Positions 14,569 to 58,677 of a stretch of DNA of 64,000 nucleotides are shown here, in pieces. A program made the position numbers and the translations under genes. Below the pieces are notes generated by a model. It did no database searches and was not told the DNA's origin. It saw only the letters and a program-made list of their open reading frames with translations. How positions within the stretch are numbered: the stretch's first letter is position 1; the number at the start of each line of letters is the position of its first letter. The DNA comes from a virus (Duplodnaviria; Caudoviricetes), in IMG/VR virus record IMGVR_UViG_3300023218_000040, positions 128,001 through 192,000 of that record; one strand, written 5' to 3'.

Positions 14569-14690
14569 GGTTAATCCGTAATAGTTTTCGAGTCGCCATT
14601 GCCTAATTTTGTCCGAATACTTTCCTGAATTTCGAACATGTCAATTCATACCTTTTGTTTGGTTTCCTAGTCATAAGCCGAAGATAGGGC

Positions 14691-14719
14691 TGGACAAACC
14701 ACTCGTCAAATGCTATACT
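14691..14719 (+). promoter_or_regulatory. Sigma70-type promoter upstream of Pnkp
   Basis: TGGACA-17 nt-TATACT with TG extension, GGAG RBS before ATG 14744. Confidence 0.6.
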
Positions 14720-14743
14720 TGCCTCACGAAATTGGAGAACCCC

Positions 14744-16042
14744 ATGAAGATCATTCCCATCGGACCATCGTTGGTTGTGCTGGTCGGCCCGTCTGGGTCG
14801 GGCAAGAGCACGTTTTGCGAGCGTCATTTTAACGCTCGTGAGGTCGTGTCGTCCGATGCCATCCGGGAGGAATTTACCGGGGATAAGCGCCGTCAGGACA
14901 AGAACGACGTAGTGTTCGCCGAATTCCATCGTCGAATCGCTGTTAAGATTCAGGCGGGTCAGCGGGTGGTGGCGGATGCCACGCATCTGCGGGACAAGGA
15001 CCGCCGTGCGACTGCCGAGGTTGGGCTGGTACTCAATGTTCCGGTGACTTACGTTGTGATCGACCGTCCTGTGGAACAGAAGCTCCACACGGGCGGGTGG
15101 CGACTGGATGTCCGGATGAAGGGAGGAATCGGTCTCATTGAGGCTCACAGCGAGACCTTCAAGGCCAATGAGAACAAGATTCTCGCTGGCGACAACATCA
15201 AGGGAGTACAGGTCGTGGATACCCGTATCGACAACTTCGAAGTTGCACAGCCGATGGCTCGTGACGGGGCGGTCACGGCTCTGGCTTCCCGTGGCTTCAA
15301 GAACGTGCGGGTGATCGGTGACGTTCACGGAAACGTGGAGGGTTTTGATCAGGCGACCGACGCTTCTTCGGACACGTTCTTCCTGTTCCTGGGTGACCTT
15401 CTGGACTACGATCCGAGGGGCATTCATGTAGTGTGTGAGGTTGTGTCCATGATGCGTCAGGGTCACGCCATCAACATTCGAGGTAACCACGAGAAGAAGA
15501 TCACCAATTGGGTAATCGGTGAGCGTGGCGACGGGTTCCGTGGTCGCATCTCGCATGGCAACGATGCCACCACGAATGTTGTCAAGGCGATGTCCCCGAG
15601 CCAGCGTGCCAAATGGGAAGCTGATTTCCTGGCTCTGGTGGAGATGTCTCCGGACTGGATCCAGCTTGGTGAGTGGCTGTTTACGCACGGTGCGGTGCAC
15701 CCGGATATGTGGGACAACTCCATGTTCCGGGCGCACAAGAACTCCAAGCTGGAGTCCTTCGCCATGTTTGGTGAGACGACTGGTGAGGTCGTGAATGGCT
15801 TTCCGGTGCGGAAGTACGATTGGGTTGACCTGATCCCGGCACAGCACCATGCTGTGGTGGGTCACGCAATCCTCTCGGTCGATGACCCGGTTATCAAGAC
15901 TGGAACGTTGGGTGGCGAGGCTGTATTCCTCGACACGGGTTCTTCCAAGGATCTCGATGGTGCCCCTGGCCATCTGTCCTGGATGGATTTCAGCATCAAC
16001 CACAACCAACTGGTTTTCCAGGGCTTCGGTCGTCAGCAGTGA
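14744..16042 (+). CDS. Polynucleotide kinase-phosphatase (AAA_33 kinase plus metallophosphoesterase)
   Basis: GPSGSGKST, SSDAIR, DAT; GDVHG, GDLLD, GNHE, HG, VVGH, LDTG; RBS supports start 14744. Confidence 0.9.
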   Translation: MKIIPIGPSLVVLVGPSGSGKSTFCERHFNAREVVSSDAIREEFTGDKRRQDKNDVVFAEFHRRIAVKIQAGQRVVADATHLRDKDRRATAEVGLVLNVPVTYVVIDRPVEQKLHTGGWRLDVRMKGGIGLIEAHSETFKANENKILAGDNIKGVQVVDTRIDNFEVAQPMARDGAVTALASRGFKNVRVIGDVHGNVEGFDQATDASSDTFFLFLGDLLDYDPRGIHVVCEVVSMMRQGHAINIRGNHEKKITNWVIGERGDGFRGRISHGNDATTNVVKAMSPSQRAKWEADFLALVEMSPDWIQLGEWLFTHGAVHPDMWDNSMFRAHKNSKLESFAMFGETTGEVVNGFPVRKYDWVDLIPAQHHAVVGHAILSVDDPVIKTGTLGGEAVFLDTGSSKDLDGAPGHLSWMDFSINHNQLVFQGFGRQQ

Positions 16043-16135: not shown

Positions 16136-17620
16136 ATGAGGAAATCTAATATGTCTGTGATATCTCGGTTGCCTATTATAACAGCATGCACAGGAATCTT
16201 TTTGCTCATGCTATCTGCTTTACTTTTCATACATGAAAAGTATTCTACTCCTACTATTCCCATTATTCCTTCTTCTGTAAACCTGGAAACAGATATTGCT
16301 TCTGCTCTGGATGAAGTCATACAACATCTGGAGAAAGAATTCGTTAACGAGACTCCCCTGAAACGAGAAGAGATGCATCAAATTGCAGTAGATGCAATTT
16401 TGAAAAAGATAGGAGACCAACACGGTAAATTTCTTACTAACGATGAATATGGTCGGTTAAAGGATCGGATGACACCGACACATTATGGTGGATTAAACAT
16501 CCGAGTTGCAAAGCACCTAAGTGGTAATGATAAAGCTGAGATATTGATCCTTGAAATATTTGATGGTTCTCCGGTAGGTACATTCGGAGTGCGCCCTGGA
16601 GATACTATTAGTCATGTAAATGGGATTATGGTAACACCGGACAATTGGGAGGATATGGTCAAGAGTGTTCGTGGCCCAATTGGTTCAGATGTCCGTATCA
16701 CTGTGAAACGTGATAGTAGGGTGAAATTGGGAGAACTAACTTTTCAGCGAGTTCGTTCGAAGCTACAAACCATATTTGCTCATCATGAAAATTGCTACAT
16801 GCATTTGCGTATTAGTTTGTTTATTAATAGCCCAGAACAACAGGTATTTGATGCGGTTGAACCCATTCTAAAGGAATGTGATGGTGGTGTTCGTGGTATC
16901 GTTCTTGATGTCAGAAATAATCCTGGTGGATCGTTGCTCGGAGCCATCAAGTTAGTTGACATGTTTCTTGATCCGGATGATGTGGTTGTTAAGACCATAG
17001 GTCGTGCAGCAGAGAACAATATGACCTATAAAGCCGAACATGAAGCTGTGTTCCCAAAATCAATTCCAATGGTTGCTTTGATAAATGGACGTTCAGCATC
17101 AGCATCTGAAATTCTTGTTGGTGCGTTGAAGAAGTATAGAACGCTTTTTGCTGTGCTAGGCGAGAAATCATATGGAAAGGGATCTGTGCAAACTGTGTTT
17201 CCAGTGAATGGTGGCACGTCGGCGGTGAAGATAACGACCGCCATATATCTGGCCGGTGGTACCATCGAAATCGATGGAGTAGGCATCAAGCCAAACGTAG
17301 AAGTGAAACAGACAATCACTCCTGGTCAAACGGATATGCAGCGTGTAGTAAACACTACCTTGATTTTGAATTCCATGAACCCGGCAGTGGATCACCAACT
17401 GCGCATGGGATACCATTTTGTTGCTCATCTGGCAAATAACAAAGCAGTAGTTTCCATATCACCTGACCGTGGTGTTCTTCAGGCGTTGGAGTCCGTCGAG
17501 GCTCAAAAGCCTGTGGTAGTTACCGGATCGTTGTGCAGGGAAGCTGGCTTGAGGGGATGCCCCCGACCAAGAGAGGTCTTGCAGGTTCCCTCCTTCGGGA
17601 CACCAGGAAACCCTCCCTGA
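16136..17620 (+). CDS. S41 family carboxy-terminal processing protease (CtpA/Prc-like) with PDZ and N-terminal membrane anchor
   Basis: Hydrophobic N-terminus, GLNI..PDZ, LDVRNNPGG, SASASE (Ser), GKGSVQ (Lys), GIKPNV. Confidence 0.9.
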   Translation: MRKSNMSVISRLPIITACTGIFLLMLSALLFIHEKYSTPTIPIIPSSVNLETDIASALDEVIQHLEKEFVNETPLKREEMHQIAVDAILKKIGDQHGKFLTNDEYGRLKDRMTPTHYGGLNIRVAKHLSGNDKAEILILEIFDGSPVGTFGVRPGDTISHVNGIMVTPDNWEDMVKSVRGPIGSDVRITVKRDSRVKLGELTFQRVRSKLQTIFAHHENCYMHLRISLFINSPEQQVFDAVEPILKECDGGVRGIVLDVRNNPGGSLLGAIKLVDMFLDPDDVVVKTIGRAAENNMTYKAEHEAVFPKSIPMVALINGRSASASEILVGALKKYRTLFAVLGEKSYGKGSVQTVFPVNGGTSAVKITTAIYLAGGTIEIDGVGIKPNVEVKQTITPGQTDMQRVVNTTLILNSMNPAVDHQLRMGYHFVAHLANNKAVVSISPDRGVLQALESVEAQKPVVVTGSLCREAGLRGCPRPREVLQVPSFGTPGNPP

Positions 17621-17691: not shown

Positions 17692-17720
17692 TTGACTAAA
17701 AATGTCTGCGGGTTTATACT
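17692..17720 (+). promoter_or_regulatory. Sigma70-type promoter upstream of RNA ligase
   Basis: TTGACT-17 nt-TATACT. Confidence 0.65.
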
Positions 17721-17754
17721 ACCCTTCCGACATAGCTTCCGTCTGGAGAATTCA

Positions 17755-19020
17755 GTGCGTTACTACAAGTTCCCGGAGATCGAAACCATCGATGATGTGC
17801 TTCCGGCCATTAAGGACCGGGATGAATTTGTCGTGGCCGAGCGAGATTGGGGAACGGTGATCGACTACCAGATCACCCTGCCGGATTCGTTCCCGTGTCC
17901 GGTTCGGGAGGCGCATACCGCCAAGCAGCAATACAATTACATGGTGCGCCGTGAGTGCCGTGGCCTGAAGTTCGGCCTGAACGGCAAGCTGATCGCTCGT
18001 CCGTATCATAAGTTTTTCAATCTGGGCGAGCGTCCGGAGACCACCGACGACGAGCTTTCGTCTTTGGGTGCGTTCCATAAGAACTTCGTGATCATGCCGA
18101 AGCTGGATGGTTCAATGATCCATCCGATCACTTGGAATGACACCATGTACTTTTGCACCCGTATGGGTATCACCGATGTTGCGAATCAGGCATACGAGTT
18201 CGCTGGAAACAACGGGATGTACGAGCGCTTTTCCTATGATATGTGCCAGCGTGGACTGACCCCAATCTTCGAGTGGTGCTCTCGCAAGCAACGCATCGTG
18301 CTGGACTATCCGCAGGACTCGTTAATCTTGACTGCCATTCGTGTGAATCGCACGGGTGAGTACCTGACCCGTGGCAAGATGCAGGCTTTGGCTGTTCCGT
18401 ACGGGGTTCCGATGGTGGATCTGTACGACGGCTCATGGGACGGCATTGAGAAGTTTAGCAAACACGTTCGTGACATCGAAAACGCCGAGGGCTACGTCAT
18501 TCGCTGGGATGACGGCAACATGATCAAGATGAAGGGTGAGTGGTACGTGGCGATCCATCGTGCCAAGGATTCCATCATGCACGAGAAGCGCATCATAGCT
18601 TTGATCTTGAACGACAGTCTGGATGATGTGATGCCGCACCTGTTGCCGCAGGACTACGACCGTCTGGACCGGTACCGCAATGACTTCTGGCGTACCGTGG
18701 ACCATGTGGAGAAAACCCTGGACACCAAGGTTTCGATCTGTCGTTCGTTCACTGATGCCACTGGCATGGAAGAGAACGAGGCGAAGGGTTGGTTCGCACG
18801 TCAGGACGTGTCGCAGTACAAGGGGGTTCTGGCTCCGTGGAAGGGTCTTTTGTTCGCTACGTGGGACAAGAAGGATAAGACTCGGAACCTGTTCATCGAT
18901 TACCTGCGCAAGCGGTTCTCGTTGGATGTAGATAACTCTAAGGCCAATGGCTCGCAGGCTGTAGTGGATGAGCTTCGTGACGCTTTCATGCTTCCGGAAA
19001 AGAAGTGGGAGGATTACTGA
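17755..19020 (+). CDS. T4 Rnl1-like RNA ligase
   Basis: RECRG, KFFN.GE, KLDGSM (motif I), TPIFEW, EGYV, KMKGEWY; GGAG RBS before GTG 17755. Confidence 0.9.
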   Translation: MRYYKFPEIETIDDVLPAIKDRDEFVVAERDWGTVIDYQITLPDSFPCPVREAHTAKQQYNYMVRRECRGLKFGLNGKLIARPYHKFFNLGERPETTDDELSSLGAFHKNFVIMPKLDGSMIHPITWNDTMYFCTRMGITDVANQAYEFAGNNGMYERFSYDMCQRGLTPIFEWCSRKQRIVLDYPQDSLILTAIRVNRTGEYLTRGKMQALAVPYGVPMVDLYDGSWDGIEKFSKHVRDIENAEGYVIRWDDGNMIKMKGEWYVAIHRAKDSIMHEKRIIALILNDSLDDVMPHLLPQDYDRLDRYRNDFWRTVDHVEKTLDTKVSICRSFTDATGMEENEAKGWFARQDVSQYKGVLAPWKGLLFATWDKKDKTRNLFIDYLRKRFSLDVDNSKANGSQAVVDELRDAFMLPEKKWEDY

Positions 19021-20582: not shown

Positions 20583-21410
20583 TTACTGTGAGTCAAGGAC
20601 CACTGGCCAACCATGCCATGTAGTTCCACCGTCACGAGTCCAGAACTTCAAGATGTCAGTACCTGCTGCCGTTAGAGTAGGTGGAGTTCCACCAGCCCAT
20701 TGAACTTCGGATCCCCAAGTTAATGTTCCCTGACCACCATTGGTTATTTCAACGGTCATTTCTGAACCGAATCCGGTCTTCATAGAACCGAGGGAAATTT
20801 GTGCGGTAGCAGCAGCACCAAACGTAAAAAAATGAGCCATGCCATCTGCTGGATCAAGCGTAATGTTGCCGGTTACTGTTCCGCTGTCATTAGTTTCAAA
20901 TCCAAAAGCACCCTCTATATTAACGACACCCTCATCACCAGAAGTAACATCACCACCAGCTATTGTTACATCAGCACCATCACCAGAAGTCGATCCACCA
21001 ATACCTCCAATGAGGGTTATTGCACCACCGGTACCAGTTGTTCCACCAGTACCAGCATTAACAACAAAGTTACCACCAGTTCCATTACCGTCACCATCAC
21101 CAGTAGTAATTGTTATGTTGCCACCAAGAGCCGCAGCACCAATCCCCGAACTACCAGAAGTGATGTTGATAGACCCACCAACACCTACTCCGGAACCGCC
21201 ATCTCCTCCATCTCCAGCGGTGATATTAACGTCGGCACCGGGAGACGCACCATCGGATATGCCGGGTTGAATATTGATGGTACCTCCAGCAAATCCGGTG
21301 CCACCATCACCAGTTGTGATGGTAAGATTTCCACCGGCTGCGCTACTACCATCTTGCGTGGTAACGTCACTCGGTGTGCCAAGCAAGGTAAGTGAACCGT
21401 TTACATCCAT
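20583..21410 (-). CDS. Gly/Thr-rich virion structural (fibre/decoration-like) protein
   Basis: Repeated GGxIxIxxGxG units; C-terminal V.WAGGT.PT.T..G.DI..F.T.DGG.TW.G seen in phage fibre proteins; TAAATA upstream. Confidence 0.65.
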   Translation of the reverse strand: MDVNGSLTLLGTPSDVTTQDGSSAAGGNLTITTGDGGTGFAGGTINIQPGISDGASPGADVNITAGDGGDGGSGVGVGGSINITSGSSGIGAAALGGNITITTGDGDGNGTGGNFVVNAGTGGTTGTGGAITLIGGIGGSTSGDGADVTIAGGDVTSGDEGVVNIEGAFGFETNDSGTVTGNITLDPADGMAHFFTFGAAATAQISLGSMKTGFGSEMTVEITNGGQGTLTWGSEVQWAGGTPPTLTAAGTDILKFWTRDGGTTWHGWPVVLDSQ

Positions 21411-21454: not shown

Positions 21455-21485
21455 TTGACTTATTCACTTATATGGGATATAAATA
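21455..21485 (+). promoter_or_regulatory. Composite sigma70/late promoter for tmRNA
   Basis: TTGACT-17 nt-TATAAA overlapping T4-late-like TATAAATA (21478-21485). Confidence 0.7.
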
Positions 21486-21490
21486 AAAGT

Positions 21491-21860
21491 ACAGTTGCTT
21501 GAGCGAACACTTGAAGCTCTACGGACGGCGGTTCGATTCCGCCCATCTCCACTAAACGATGGACATAGAGTAGCAGTGAGTGTACACCGGTACTCTATTT
21601 TCATTAGCGGCAGATAACGCACAACTGCCACATCTCTGGGGATGCCCTGGTTTTGACGTGGTGATGGATGGCTAGTAGTGAGACTGTCGGGTTAGACTAC
21701 CCCCGTAAAGGTTCACCCAAAGTATCTGCAAACGATGCTGTATATGACGAGGAGGTTCTTCCTCTCGCTGCATAAGCGGGAGCCAAGAATTCCTACTGCG
21801 GCTTAACAACCCGCAACGTCCGGGGTCTAACGAGCCTTGTTACCAAAATCCTAGAAAGGG
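21491..21860 (+). ncRNA. ssrA: Circularly permuted two-piece tmRNA
   Basis: Acceptor piece first (T-arm GGCGG-TTCGATT-CCGCC, CATCTCC-A ending 21551), intervening segment, then coding piece from GGGGATG (21638); stem GGGGAUG/CAUCUCC has G3.U70 and A73; tag ORF 21728-21775 ANDAVYDEEVLPLAA*; piece boundaries approximate. Confidence 0.92.
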
Positions 21861-21881
21861 GAGCCTGTGTGCTCCCCTTTT
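21855..21881 (+). terminator. Rho-independent terminator after tmRNA
   Basis: AAAGGGGAGC-ctgtgt-GCTCCCCTTTT. Confidence 0.8.
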
Positions 21882-21926
21882 GCTTTCCGTAATATTACTC
21901 GTCAATCATTTCACCAAGAAACTTTT

Positions 21927-23001: not shown

Positions 23002-25164
23002 ATGCACATCAAAGAAGATATCAAGTTGGACTACTCGGACGTTCTTATTTGTCCCAAAAGGTCAACTCTTGGTAGTCGTTCTGCCGTAGAACTAATCCGA
23101 ACCTACAAATTCCGTCACGGCAAGAAATATTGGAGTGGCGTGCCTATTATGGCAGCCAACATGGATGGCGTCGGTACTTTCTCCATGGCCAAGGTGCTTC
23201 AGAAGCATGGCATGATGACAGTCATTCGAAAGCACTACACGTTGAACGATTGGCAGAAGAATGCTAATGATTTGGATTGGAACTACATTGTGGCATGCAC
23301 GGGCAGCAATGCGATCTTTGATAACGATGCAACCGACTATAAACTCCTTCATCAAGTATGCGAGCGTTGGCCAGTACGGCATATATGCATCGATGTTGCG
23401 AACGGTTACCAGGAGAACTTTGTCGAATTCGTTGAGCAAGTTCGCAACGACTTCCCTGAACATACTCTGATTGCTGGAAATGTCTGCACGCCCGAAATCA
23501 CCGAGCAGTTGATCCTGAGCGGTGCCGACATTGTGAAGGTGGGTATTGGTCCAGGATGTCTTGCTGCTGGCAGTAGAATCCTCATGTCGAATGGGTTGTA
23601 CAAAAACATTGAGGATGTACAAGCGGGTGATCGGGTAATAGTACAAAGTGGTAATGCCGCTACAGTTAACCGGCAATTCTCTACCGGATATCGACAGGTC
23701 ACTTCAGTGACAAATGGTTCTTTTCATCGACCTTTGATTCTGACGCCAGATCATCGATGTTTCTTAGGAGACCTATCATCCACTTCGAAATCTACTGTTC
23801 AGTCTCGTGGCTATCGAAAGATCTTAGAAAAGCCCACCAGAACCGGAGAATCCAAACTGCGATGGATGCCCATCGAAGATGCGGAACATACTGTAGCATT
23901 GATGCCTAAAACAATCGAATTCGAATTGCCTGATTCTTTCGATGTAGACATTTCTGAACACTTTACTCGAAACCATGAGTATAAAACTTGTGTCGAGTCT
24001 AATTATGACTTCGGATATGTACTTGGTTTCTTTCTTGGTGACGGAAATGCCAATGTTCGCACAAATCATACTGTGGATGGTGATTCCACATCCGGACAAC
24101 TGCGTTGGTATCTGAATGCCAACGACACGGTGATGATTCAGAAGCTAGTGCAAGCAATCGGCAATGTAACCGGAAAGGAACCAGTATTGGAAACGAGTGG
24201 TTCGGTTACACATGTCGTTCTGTATTCCAAACAGTGGACTGAATTCTTTGCCACATTTGGGAAGCAAGAGAAAAAGCACATCCGAGAAGAATTCATGTGT
24301 CTGAACAAAGAATACAATACCGGTCTTCTGGATGGATTGGTTGATTCTGATGGATTCACCAGTAATGATGGTCGCATCGGATTTACTAACACATCAGAAT
24401 CATTGATTGAGTTGTTCGATGTGGTTTGCTATCTGGTGCATGGTAGCTTCCCGACATCTTCGTCTAAAGGAATCTGTCATTCTGCCCTTATACCGAATAC
24501 TACGAAAGAAGCCTTCGTTAGTCGATTGAATGTTTCCCATGAGGCCCGACTGTTAGATGATTACGGTGTTGTAAAAATTCTAAACCGTACCGAACATAAC
24601 ATTGAGGTTGAGGTTTTTGATTTGGAAATCGATGACCCATCACATAGTTTCATTGCTAACAATATGATTGTTCATAATTCGGTCTGTACGACTCGCATCG
24701 TGACTGGCGTTGGCTATCCGCAGCTATCTGCGGTAATCGAGTGCGCTGACATTGCTCACCAACACAAAGGCATGGTCATCGCTGATGGTGGATGCACTGT
24801 TCCTGGTGACGTTGCCAAGGCTTTTGGTGGCGGTGCTGATTTCGTGATGCTTGGTGGTATGCTCGCTTTCCATGACGAGTCTGAAGAAGTTGATGAGTCT
24901 GATGGTACGGTGAAGTTCTACGGAATGAGCAGCAACGATGCAATGGGTCGTCATGGTGCTCGAAAGGATGGATATCGTACAGCCGAAGGTAAGGCTGTAG
25001 AGATGGAGTCCCGTGGTCCTGTGAACAACACTGTCGAGGAAATCTTGGGCGGTCTCAAGTCTACCTGCACGTATGTTGGTGCGGAGTCACTGAAGGAGCT
25101 AAGTAAGCGTACCACATTCGTACGAGTCAACCGAACTCACAACAGAGTATTTGGAGACGGGTAA
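23002..25164 (+). CDS. guaC: GMP reductase with intein
   Basis: KLDYSDVLI.PKRSTL.SR, PIMAANMDGVG, CIDVANGY, KVGIGPG-[intein]-SVCTTR..TGVGYPQLSA, IADGGC, FYGMSS, AEGK. Confidence 0.93.
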   Translation: MHIKEDIKLDYSDVLICPKRSTLGSRSAVELIRTYKFRHGKKYWSGVPIMAANMDGVGTFSMAKVLQKHGMMTVIRKHYTLNDWQKNANDLDWNYIVACTGSNAIFDNDATDYKLLHQVCERWPVRHICIDVANGYQENFVEFVEQVRNDFPEHTLIAGNVCTPEITEQLILSGADIVKVGIGPGCLAAGSRILMSNGLYKNIEDVQAGDRVIVQSGNAATVNRQFSTGYRQVTSVTNGSFHRPLILTPDHRCFLGDLSSTSKSTVQSRGYRKILEKPTRTGESKLRWMPIEDAEHTVALMPKTIEFELPDSFDVDISEHFTRNHEYKTCVESNYDFGYVLGFFLGDGNANVRTNHTVDGDSTSGQLRWYLNANDTVMIQKLVQAIGNVTGKEPVLETSGSVTHVVLYSKQWTEFFATFGKQEKKHIREEFMCLNKEYNTGLLDGLVDSDGFTSNDGRIGFTNTSESLIELFDVVCYLVHGSFPTSSSKGICHSALIPNTTKEAFVSRLNVSHEARLLDDYGVVKILNRTEHNIEVEVFDLEIDDPSHSFIANNMIVHNSVCTTRIVTGVGYPQLSAVIECADIAHQHKGMVIADGGCTVPGDVAKAFGGGADFVMLGGMLAFHDESEEVDESDGTVKFYGMSSNDAMGRHGARKDGYRTAEGKAVEMESRGPVNNTVEEILGGLKSTCTYVGAESLKELSKRTTFVRVNRTHNRVFGDG
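23557..24678 (+). mobile_element. Intein (374 aa) with LAGLIDADG endonuclease in guaC
   Basis: CLAAGSRI start, LTPDHR block B, LGFFLGDG and LDGLVDSDG, VFDLEI..HSF.AN..IVHN before +1 Ser. Confidence 0.92.
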
Positions 25165-40261: not shown

Positions 40262-42016
40262 ATGAAACTCCTGGAGTTCCTGGACATCATTCGGGAGGAT
40301 GACACCAGCGAACCCGGAAAGTTTGTTGGAGCCCGCCTTACCCGAGAATCTGAACGCAATCTCATGCACTGGATGCGTGAGACGGGCTTGCGTAAGCGTG
40401 TCCCACGTGCTCGTCTCCACATCACCGTCATTGGCGATAAGACTAGGAATTTCGATTGGACTCCCGCTGTATTTGATCCACCCCTAGAAGTCGATGCTTC
40501 TACGTATAAGCTTCAACGCTTCGGGGGTGAGAATGAGTGCGTCGTTCTGACGTTTTCCTGCCCTGAGCTAGAGAAACGTCATAACAAGGCACGTAAAGAA
40601 CATGGTATCCATTATGACCATGACCACTATCAGCCACACATTACTGTTAGTGTCGATCCCAAAGAACTGAATAACCTGGAGAGCCTCCTTCTTCCTACCT
40701 TCCCGCTGTATATCGACCGAGAATACGAGCAGCCTTGGGAACACAAATTCAATGAGAGTTCCGAGCGTCGTCGTAAAGAACGTACTAACGAAGATATTCT
40801 ATTCGAGCGCAACCTGCTGAATCCTGAAATGGCGATAGATGCTGCTGATCGTTTCTCTGACTCTTTTGCTCAGTTCGGTGTGCATGTCGCTGAATGGGCA
40901 AAGAGATCCATGCGAAAGTATGTCATCAACAATTTCCCTGCTAAGAAAATCATACAGTACGAGTTGATGGATATCATCCCTCCTGACGCAGACAAACAGA
41001 AGATTGTTCAGGGTGCTGCTGTCATTCAATATCCAAACGACCCTGAAACATTCGGTATCCTGAGTGGACGCACTCAAGAGCAAACTCTGTCATTGCCAAT
41101 CTGGGCTGCAAATGCTCTCCAACGGGGCGAAGAGATATACTTCCTGGACAGCAAAGCCATTTTTGGAAGGGGAGGACTGGATTATCAAACACGGATGGTT
41201 GCAGACTGGTTCAGAAATTTGTCACGTACTAATCCACAGTTGCTTGAGCCACATCGACTCAACAGAATGTCTTGGGCTCAAGCTCTTCAAGGTACCGAGA
41301 AATATCACGAAGAACTCAAACGTAGAAAAGAAGCAGACATTGAGGAAGAGGGAGACAAAGAACTGTACCTGGACCTCGGACAGAATGGTCAATGGTGGAA
41401 GCTAACGGGACCATCATGCCTTGACCGTGAAGGTAACTTGATGGGTCACTGTGTTGCAGATTACATCGATGATGTAGAAAGCGATGAAGCAATCATTCTG
41501 TCACTTCGTGACTCTAAAAACAATCCACATGTTACTGTGGAACTTCGTCCGTTTGAGATGAAGGATGCACAGGGTATTGCAATCGAACAAATCAAGGGTA
41601 AAGAAAACGAGCCCCCTGTGAAGAAGTATTGGCCGCAGGTTGAAGAATTACTCAAACACTTGAAGAGTGAGACCACCATCACGGCTGGTGATGGCATGGG
41701 AGAAGAAGACCTCTTAGCAATGGGTATCATCATTGTTCCATTTGATGACAACGCAATCATTCGAGTGTCAGCAACGGGAGATCCCGGTGACCCATTAGAT
41801 TGGAGTATTGAAATCAAGGGCGTGATTATCGACATGGGCAAGGAGATGGACTACGAGGAAGAAAGCACAGTGGAAGAATTCTCCAACGACAACAATTTGA
41901 ATCCTCAAGAACTCATCTACAACTTAGCCAAGACCGGTGAATATCGAATCGAGGGGTTTGATTCGGATCTCGTAGTCTATCCAACGTATTCATGGTCGAT
42001 GAAAAAGATTGGTTAA
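40262..42016 (+). CDS. Fusion of T4 gp57B/Acb1-like 2H phosphoesterase (anti-CBASS-like) with a PcfJ-like domain
   Basis: FVGARL...VPRARLHITV...VVL.F....L..RH..AR...DH..YQPHITVS...P...DREY.QP matches the recalled T4 57B pattern with two HxT motifs; LDREG..MGHCV..Y...ILSLRD..N.PHVTVE...IEQIKGK.N is PcfJ-like. Confidence 0.75.
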   Translation: MKLLEFLDIIREDDTSEPGKFVGARLTRESERNLMHWMRETGLRKRVPRARLHITVIGDKTRNFDWTPAVFDPPLEVDASTYKLQRFGGENECVVLTFSCPELEKRHNKARKEHGIHYDHDHYQPHITVSVDPKELNNLESLLLPTFPLYIDREYEQPWEHKFNESSERRRKERTNEDILFERNLLNPEMAIDAADRFSDSFAQFGVHVAEWAKRSMRKYVINNFPAKKIIQYELMDIIPPDADKQKIVQGAAVIQYPNDPETFGILSGRTQEQTLSLPIWAANALQRGEEIYFLDSKAIFGRGGLDYQTRMVADWFRNLSRTNPQLLEPHRLNRMSWAQALQGTEKYHEELKRRKEADIEEEGDKELYLDLGQNGQWWKLTGPSCLDREGNLMGHCVADYIDDVESDEAIILSLRDSKNNPHVTVELRPFEMKDAQGIAIEQIKGKENEPPVKKYWPQVEELLKHLKSETTITAGDGMGEEDLLAMGIIIVPFDDNAIIRVSATGDPGDPLDWSIEIKGVIIDMGKEMDYEEESTVEEFSNDNNLNPQELIYNLAKTGEYRIEGFDSDLVVYPTYSWSMKKIG

Positions 42017-57465: not shown

Positions 57466-58677
57466 ATGGCCACATTTTCAGTTCCAGTCGTCCGTATCGA
57501 CGCCATCGAGGACCATCCCAATGCCGACGCCTTGGAGATCGCCAAGGTGCGTGACTTCGATTGCATCACCCGCATCGGTGAGTACAAGGCTGGTGATATC
57601 GCTGTGTACATCCCCGAGGCTGCGGTCATGCCCGAGTGGCTGCTGAAGCGCATGGGTCTGTGGGATGAGGAGAAAGGCAAAGGCAAGCTGGCAGGCAAAG
57701 AAGGCAATCGTGTCAAGGCTGTCAAGCTGCGTGGCGTCGTGAGTCAGGGTCTGTTGTACCCGGTGTCTTGGGATGACCCAGATCTGTCTCAGGGAGAGAC
57801 TGTCGGTCTGCCTCGTGTCGATCTGAGCGACGGCGAAAGCTACCTGCTGTATGACTGGAACGACGTGGACATCGAGACCATCAAGTCTCGTTGCATCGAC
57901 GTGGACGTGGGAGACGTGCTTGGCATCACCAAGTGGGAGCCTCCCATTCCGACGCACATGGCTGGTGAGGTCTGCAACATCTTCGGCCACACTCTGAAGT
58001 TCGACATCGAGAACATCCAGAAGCACAACGAGGTTCTGGTTTCGGGCGAGGAGGTCGTGATCACCGAGAAGCTTCACGGCACCTGGACGTGCTTTGGCTT
58101 CGATCCGGACCTGGATCACGAGGAACTTCTTCACGGTGGCACCATCATCAACTCTAAGGGTCTGAGCGAGCAGGGTTTGGCATTCAAGTGGAACGACGCC
58201 AATGACAAGAACCTGTACGTTCGGATGTTCAAGCAGTACATGCTGGATACTGGTAGATGGAACAAGGTGATGGACATGGCCGTTCGTCGTGGCGAGCCCG
58301 TGTTCATCCTGGGTGAGACCTTCGGTCCTGGTGTACAAGATCTGCACTACGGTCTGAAGGAGAAGAGTTTTCTGGTGTTCGGCATCTACGTCGGCAAGCC
58401 GGGTCAGGGTCAATACCTCGATCACGTGGAGTTCAAGCAGACGTGCTCCTGGCTAGAGGTTTCCACGGTACCGGTCCTGTACCATGGTCCGTTCAGCATG
58501 GATACTGCCAAGAGCTTTCGTGACGGAAAGGATACCATCACCGGAGCCAACATTCGGGAGGGTATCGTGATTACTCCGGTTAAAGAACGAAACGATTTCG
58601 TGCTGGGTCGGGTGACTCTCAAGATGATCAGCCCGGACTACCTGCTGCGGAAGGGCAATGCCACGGAATTCAACTGA
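57466..58677 (+). CDS. RNA ligase, DRB0094 family (N-terminal OB-fold plus nucleotidyltransferase)
   Basis: I..I..HPNAD.LE.A, AVYIPE, R.KA.KLRG..SQG, K.EP, EKLHGT, GE..G..VQ, REG.V, K.IS..YL. Confidence 0.88.
   Translation: MATFSVPVVRIDAIEDHPNADALEIAKVRDFDCITRIGEYKAGDIAVYIPEAAVMPEWLLKRMGLWDEEKGKGKLAGKEGNRVKAVKLRGVVSQGLLYPVSWDDPDLSQGETVGLPRVDLSDGESYLLYDWNDVDIETIKSRCIDVDVGDVLGITKWEPPIPTHMAGEVCNIFGHTLKFDIENIQKHNEVLVSGEEVVITEKLHGTWTCFGFDPDLDHEELLHGGTIINSKGLSEQGLAFKWNDANDKNLYVRMFKQYMLDTGRWNKVMDMAVRRGEPVFILGETFGPGVQDLHYGLKEKSFLVFGIYVGKPGQGQYLDHVEFKQTCSWLEVSTVPVLYHGPFSMDTAKSFRDGKDTITGANIREGIVITPVKERNDFVLGRVTLKMISPDYLLRKGNATEFN

Follow-up and report, generated by a model that had tools for sequence, protein, structure and literature searches.

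A complete, circularly permuted tmRNA gene of divergent beta type in a jumbo-phage contig

Organization of the tmRNA gene

The DNA analysed here (the window) is a stretch of 64,000 nucleotides that corresponds to bases 128001-192000 of a 204,014 bp IMG/VR virus record, for which CheckV gave a completeness of 55%. We found that the phage carries a complete, circularly permuted (two-piece) tmRNA gene, and its features are listed with neighbouring phage-like genes in Table 1. ARAGORN at default settings placed a permuted tmRNA ('tmRNA*') at 21462-21897. The Rfam model RF04321 (tmRNA_permuted) matched 21491-21775 with a score of 95.4 bits, where the gathering score is 47 (E-value of 3.2e-17 over the whole window), and the alignment spanned the full model, positions 1-213. 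These two matches, in a viral contig of jumbo-phage size, bear out the original prediction of a permuted tmRNA in a phage. The predicted order of the two halves was also recovered; the 3' strand CAUCUCC (21544-50) precedes the 5' strand GGGGAUG (21638-44), and ARAGORN labelled the gene 'Permuted'.

Table 1. Features of the tmRNA locus and neighbouring phage-like genes, in window coordinates.
Feature	Position	Strand	Basis or remark
Polynucleotide kinase-phosphatase	14609-16042		Phage-like neighbour
T4 Rnl1-type RNA ligase	17692-19020		Phage-like neighbour
Tail-fibre-like gene	20583-21410	-	Phage-like neighbour of the tmRNA
-35-like box TTGACT	21455-21460	+	Direct reading; aligns with UUGA in the RF01850 5' flank
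-10-like box TATAAATA, 17 nt after the -35 box	21478-21485	+	Recurring motif
Acceptor piece: 5' strands of the P2 helices, T arm, 3' acceptor strand, A73	21491-21551	+	RF04321 positions 1-63; ARAGORN
Intervening segment, 86 nt, two hairpins, no gene	21552-21637	+	Insertion in the RF04321 alignment
Coding piece	21638-21886	+	RF04321 positions 87-213; RF01850 to 21881; ARAGORN 5' tRNA domain
PK1-position hairpin CGGG/CCCG, upstream of the tag	21688-21705	+	Four standard pairs, Rfam consensus structure; only this stem seen
Tag frame: resume codon GCA, 15 codons (ANDAVYDEEVLPLAA), stop UAA at 21773-75	21728-21775	+	Direct reading; Rfam consensus
Second tag-end hairpin UGCGG/CCGCA with GCG GCU UAA, out of frame	21797-21815	+	Viral and Gallionellaceae alignments
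Conserved 3' domain: CCGGGG, then a short-stem hairpin with loop CCUUGUUACCAAAA	21820-21848	+	Fits the RF01850 consensus
Terminal hairpin and U-run, intrinsic-terminator-like	21854-21886	+	Terminal stem (last helix) of RF01850

The two strands named above form a seven-pair acceptor stem. The T stem is formed by GGCGG (21527-31) and CCGCC (21539-43), and both direct reading and RF04321 gave a canonical T loop, UUCGAUU. The P2 region is closed by the pairing of ACAGU (21491-95) with ACUGU (21683-87), and the P2 pairs were non-standard at three places in the Rfam alignment. The alanine identity elements are intact, with the G3(21640)-U70(21548) pair and A73 at 21551. G3-U70, A73 and a 5' acceptor strand starting at 21638 had all been predicted, and each was present on direct reading. 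A minimum-energy cofold of the whole molecule, an approach with little power for so large an RNA, joined the two pieces without the acceptor stem. The segment between the pieces, originally put at about 86 nt, measures exactly that. Two hairpins form in its predicted fold (-26.4 kcal/mol), and its sequence is not conserved among relatives; no protein gene was found within the 86 nt, as the overlapping listed ORFs all extend past its ends.

The position after A73 is occupied by CUA (21552-54) instead of CCA, a difference of one base, which agrees with the predicted absence of an encoded CCA. Among 58 related viral genes called as permuted tmRNAs by ARAGORN, 56 encode CCA, and the remaining two have CUA and CCC. 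Three of the 12 phage tRNA genes also have no encoded CCA, and no gene for a CCA-adding enzyme was found in the 204-kb record; a host enzyme would therefore be needed for both kinds of RNA. The CCA-less tRNA genes of phage T4 give transcripts whose 3' ends are trimmed by the host and completed by its CCA-adding enzyme. The present gene is similar in that a phage RNA would rely on the host for its CCA, whereas the CCA-less gene here is a tmRNA and is only one base off.

Besides GGGGAUG and the D-loop analogue CUGGUUUUGAC, the coding piece contains the 3' strands of P2 and the PK1 hairpin, and then the tag frame, 3' domain and terminal hairpin. Its D-loop analogue has the sequence UUUUGAC, while 65 of the 72 compared genes have UUCGAC. 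The Rfam alignment set the consensus UGCAAACGAU...GCUGCNUAA on 21727-21775, in the same frame as ANDAVYDEEVLPLAA; the region fits the consensus UGCaAACGAu...GCuGCcUAA, as do the U at -5 and the A at -4 before GCA. The tag originally read from GCA at 21728 to UAA at 21775 was thus upheld, with its frame backed by the alignment. The tag starts with ANDxxY, has an acidic middle and ends with LPLAA and the stop, and its UAA lies in the loop of a five-pair hairpin (CUCGC at 21764-68, GCGGG at 21776-80). A 31-aa tag offered by ARAGORN was rejected, as the program itself labelled it 'Tag not identified' and the Rfam consensus lies on the ANDAVYDEEVLPLAA frame. A metagenome scan with the tag in degenerate form gave 0 matches.

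Some 31 nt past the tag stop, and in the +1 frame relative to the tag, lies the second tag-end hairpin. In the alignments it is homologous to the hairpin that ends the tags of viral and Gallionellaceae permuted tmRNAs, and the fallback tag of ARAGORN ends there. Judged from these alignments, the second hairpin is probably a relic, and the lineage probably gained an earlier in-frame LAA-stop.

The 3' domain that follows is common to 19 viral (IMG/VR) contigs, and a looser form is present in a Gallionellaceae tmRNA. The terminal hairpin (21854-64/21871-81) has a folding energy of -18.4 kcal/mol, with UUUUGCUUU after it. With these elements, the RF01850-type 3' layout is complete: the stop hairpin is followed by CCGGGG, by a hairpin whose loop is of the CCUUGU type and by the terminal hairpin. 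We also observed that beta-type tmRNAs, this one included, conserve a loop, CCUUGUUAC (21835-21843 here), whose perfect reverse complement, GUAACAAGG, is found close to the 3' terminus of 16S rRNA; this rRNA sequence was confirmed at 1506-1514 of sequence L235, inside its 16S gene (19-1551). By a rough estimate, the chance of a 9-nt rRNA match for a loop of that size is about 0.1, and an alternative partner could be GUAA..AGG, just past the PK1 hairpin.

Genomic setting and promoter

Since 204 kb represents about 55% of the genome, the phage is a jumbo phage of perhaps 370 kb in full. The tmRNA site lies approximately 149 kb into the contig with phage genes on both sides (the tail-fibre-like gene, the Rnl1-type ligase and others), and further phage-like genes around it encode an AAA ATPase and a DUF2201 protein. 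The base composition is even across the region. No integrase gene was found in the 204-kb record, and no SmpB gene was found in these 204 kb of an approximately 55%-complete genome. The nearest isolated phage was Sinorhizobium phage Phosso (469 kb), with 31-36% identity in tblastn searches with two different proteins; jumbo phages of Caulobacter, Agrobacterium and Salicola ranked lower in the two lists.

Several other genes of the window are worth describing. An RNA-repair set is spread among the tmRNA and tRNA genes, and its members are the kinase-phosphatase and the Rnl1-type ligase of Table 1 and two more proteins, one with an RNA-ligase domain at its N terminus (40262-42016) and one that is another RNA ligase (57466-58677). 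At 16136-17620 (+), 4 kb upstream of the tmRNA, a gene encodes a 494-aa S41 peptidase of the C-terminal processing (Tsp/Prc) type with a PDZ domain and an N-terminal membrane anchor; its TIGR00225 score was 209 bits against a cutoff of 218.6, and its PHROG match was marginal. The Tsp protease of E. coli degrades ssrA-tagged periplasmic proteins. Downstream of the tmRNA, at 23002-25164 (+), a gene of the IMP dehydrogenase/GMP reductase family is split by an intein-like insert, for which the Hint, intein-splicing and LAGLIDADG matches were all below the Pfam cutoffs.

The -35-like and -10-like boxes upstream of the tmRNA belong to a motif that recurs in the phage. The pattern TTGAC-N14-19-TATAAATA has five copies in the 204-kb record, all on the plus strand, against about 0.05 expected (the mean of forty first-order Markov simulations, in which the maximum was 1). 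The copies lie at record positions 149455, 185071, 196181, 196393 and 201636, the first two of which are window positions 21455 and 57071. The motif stands 5 nt before the tmRNA, 13 nt before a tRNA-Glu pair and 9 nt before tRNA-Arg/Thr, and its further sites are 81 nt before a tRNA-Ala pair and upstream of a small ORF, after which comes tRNA-Gly; four of the copies are located directly before stable RNA genes. As the motif is common to the tmRNA and the tRNA genes, the tmRNA seems to be transcribed from the same type of promoter as they are, and the shared motif suggests that both are expressed jointly. If transcription starts about 6 nt after the -10 box, the primary 5' end would be 21491. 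Separately, another RNA may be encoded in the 81 nt that separate the motif from the tRNA-Ala pair.

The original prediction had also credited the unit with its own promoter and terminator. A simple promoter/terminator scanner called neither signal at the tmRNA, and the promoter was missed because the -10 sequence TATAAA lacks a T that the scanner requires. In favour of the claim are the recurring motif class and the -18.4 kcal/mol hairpin with its U-run.

Family assignment and relatives

To place the gene within the permuted tmRNAs, we compared the lineage-specific Rfam models. The beta model RF01850 gave 68.7 bits against a threshold of 84, in an end-to-end alignment from the promoter through the terminal hairpin; the cyanobacterial model RF01851 gave 44.3 bits against 70, over the tRNA-like domain only; and the alpha model RF01849 gave 29.4 bits against 50. 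As all three scores were below threshold, the gene is the most divergent among the beta-type phage genes compared. We assign it to a divergent beta type on sequence grounds, because downstream of the tag it is built like the beta model and the Gallionellaceae genes; it matches the general family and falls below the strict beta threshold.

The check with two-piece models that had been proposed for the gene therefore had a divided outcome, positive for ARAGORN and RF04321 and below threshold for the beta, alpha and cyanobacterial models. The warning that searches can miss the gene held in part. ARAGORN finds it at default settings, so the gene is not really hidden; the three older lineage-specific models, however, leave it below threshold, and ARAGORN calls the wrong tag, which together mark an annotation gap.

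Two-piece tmRNAs of betaproteobacteria were described by Sharkady and Williams (2004), as cited in PMC9004378. The present gene resembles the betaproteobacterial RF01850 type in its permuted order, T loop UUCGAUU, single hairpin or possible pseudoknot before the tag and tag starting with AND. The likeness continues after the tag, where a hairpin leads to CCGGGG, then to a second hairpin whose short stem bears a CCUUGU-type loop, and finally to the terminal hairpin. Unlike that type, the gene is phage-borne and does not encode CCA, and its tag has 15 residues instead of 10 and stops 33 nt before the ancestral stop hairpin. The bacterial (Gallionellaceae) beta-type genes scored 131-230 bits with RF01850, compared with 68.7 here. 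A 23-nt segment of the T arm and acceptor strand is identical to that of Gallionellaceae genomes, among the matches listed, but it is not lineage-specific, since the bacterial matches listed are mostly one-piece tmRNAs of Patescibacteria. The strict 3'-domain pattern was absent from 401 sampled genomes of the class that contains the Gallionellaceae.

Two-piece tmRNAs of phages are frequent in IMG/VR and are already known from published work. The 23-nt segment is present in 68 IMG/VR contigs, and ARAGORN called a permuted tmRNA in 58 of them. Buchholz et al. (2022) reported 133 unique tmRNAs in isolated phages, 53 of which are two-piece (PMC9004378). Given this frequency and these publications, the gene is real but belongs to a known kind, to which it adds a divergent beta-type example.

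Among the described cases, the gene is similar to those of Melnitz, the pelagimyophages and others (PMC9004378), in which a complete permuted ssrA gene with its own promoter lies in a large T4-like myophage genome that has no integrase. The gene of the Methylophilales phage Melnitz is of the alpha type and is accompanied by a glutamine riboswitch (PMC9004378), whereas the present gene is of the beta type, no riboswitch family was matched at it, and its carrier is a jumbo phage.

Phosso (PV764938) also has a permuted tmRNA, which scored 113 bits with RF04321 and, as an alpha-type gene, 108 bits with RF01849. Its alpha T loop, encoded CCA, spacer of approximately 375 nt and tag ANDNVSTKVALAA are all unlike those of the present gene; its genomic location is not the same, and ARAGORN misses it. 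The Phosso gene spans 349596-350198 (1501-2103 of the extracted segment L073, minus strand), and its spacer contains putative ORFs of 51-57 codons on the tmRNA strand. A related phage, AP-J-162, has been reported with one tmRNA (PMC11242549).

Four of the contigs with the 3'-domain motif are of jumbo size (209-329 kb), and one of these is complete, with terminal repeats. All four pass RF04321, and three pass the beta threshold, while the complete one scored best as an alpha type. In the three beta-type contigs (G001, 221 kb; G003, 209 kb; G004, 219 kb), the 3'-domain motif and architecture are the same as here. Their genes differ in scoring 98-155 bits with the beta model and in encoding CCA, and their tags are short or of 28-29 residues and end in the conserved hairpin. 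None of these phages shares the Rnl1-type ligase or the S41 protease of the present phage (for the protease, no match in four tmRNA-bearing jumbo contigs). The complete 329-kb phage (G002; L220/L205) is an observation in its own right; its tmRNA, at 71 bits with the alpha model, carries the beta-group 3' motif CCGGGGU...CCUUGUUACCAAA and may be a mosaic.

A close relative of this RNA was found neither in isolated phages nor in IMG/VR nor in the metagenome collection. Blastn of the gene and megablast of the surrounding 15 kb against isolated phage genomes returned nothing, and a search of IMG/VR with the Rnl1 protein for related loci found no relatives. Pairwise identities among about 65 permuted tmRNAs in gapped alignments all fell between 0.67 and 0.82, a range that does not discriminate, and we therefore name no nearest relative. 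A metagenome scan with the 5' tRNA-like segment matched only unrelated 'mini' tmRNAs of 133 nt in standard order, in which a tRNA-like domain is joined to almost no message part. These lie on L231 (5861-5993), L232 (1479-1611) and, in two copies, L234 (5295-5427 and 7473-7605), pass RF00023 (67-73 bits) and have a T-arm/acceptor segment 97% identical to that of the phage over 30 nt.

The permuted tmRNA had originally been put forward as a clue to the host. In favour of this, the gene is closest to the betaproteobacterial type; against it stand the score below threshold (68.7 versus 84 bits) and the counterexample of Melnitz, which has an alpha-type tmRNA although its OM43 host falls on the gammaproteobacterial tmRNA branch (PMC9004378). 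Because of this mismatch between tmRNA type and host branch, we regard the beta type as a suggestive host clue only. The occurrence of a beta type here and an alpha type in the distantly related Phosso, which has an alphaproteobacterial host, tentatively fits a tmRNA type that tracks the host.

Proposed function and alternative readings

With a probability of roughly 0.8, we interpret the locus as a working permuted ssrA gene of a lytic jumbo phage that releases stalled ribosomes by means of host partners. On the model of established two-piece tmRNAs, a single precursor would run from about 21491 to the terminator near 21886. Host RNase P would cut just before G1 (21638), the 3' end of the first piece would be trimmed to A73 or C74, the host CCA-adding enzyme would complete the CCA, and the 86-nt spacer would be discarded. 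The resulting acceptor piece of 61 nt and coding piece of approximately 245 nt would be held together by the acceptor stem and the P2 helices. We infer that host alanyl-tRNA synthetase would charge the molecule through G3-U70 and A73, and that host SmpB and EF-Tu would deliver it to ribosomes stalled on broken mRNAs. Translation would resume at GCA (21728) and add ANDAVYDEEVLPLAA, whose -LAA end would mark the product for degradation, and the ribosome would be freed. The phage would gain by keeping ribosomes free during the shutdown of host RNA synthesis or the cutting of mRNA.

A broader version of this function is conceivable but rather doubtful. The tmRNA could belong to a phage 'translation repair' set on the tRNA-type promoter, acting with the kinase-phosphatase, the RNA ligases and the tRNAs. 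If so, the set would sustain translation when abortive-infection nucleases of the host cut tRNAs and mRNAs, and tagged products would be dealt with through the unusual 15-residue tag and the membrane-anchored Tsp-like protease encoded nearby.

We consider it unlikely that the tmRNA instead alters or blocks host trans-translation, by competing for SmpB or by changing the fate of the product through a phage-specific tag. The 15-aa LPLAA tag does depart from the 10-aa ANDE(R/K/N)FA(L/M)AA of bacterial and many viral beta-type genes, yet it retains an ordinary N-terminal AND and C-terminal LAA, and every part for normal function is present. Having no SmpB in the 204 kb, the phage must draw on the host supply, although the remainder of the genome, of which the record covers approximately 55%, may hold one. 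The membrane-anchored Tsp/Prc-like protease gene 4 kb upstream would also suit an altered product fate, but it is unmatched in four other tmRNA-bearing jumbo-phage contigs. A tmRNA-like domain alone has been reported to inhibit tmRNA (DS6A, PMC4131195).

It is more improbable still that the gene is a decaying, non-functional copy of a captured host gene. Such decay would account for the sub-threshold scores with the three lineage-specific models, the loss of CCA, the rare substitution in the D-loop analogue and the leftover out-of-frame second tag end. However, the score with the general model RF04321 is twice its threshold, and the gene has kept its acceptor stem and T arm, its identity elements, its tag frame and its terminal hairpin intact. 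The D-loop variant UUUUGAC recurs in seven other viral contigs, in five of which ARAGORN calls a tmRNA, CCA-less genes occur among the phage's own tRNAs, and the promoter is of the phage type common to the tRNA genes.

Finally, a fragment of host DNA or of an ssrA attachment site, left by a prophage border or a chimeric assembly, can practically be dismissed: tmRNA genes are common integration sites (PMC4383910) and such an origin may apply to many short IMG/VR contigs that carry ANDE(R/K)FALAA tags, but here both gene halves are complete, the site lies deep within a contig of phage genes with an even base composition, the score with the beta model is far from the range of the bacterial beta-type genes, and the record contains no integrase, which argues against an integration-site remnant.
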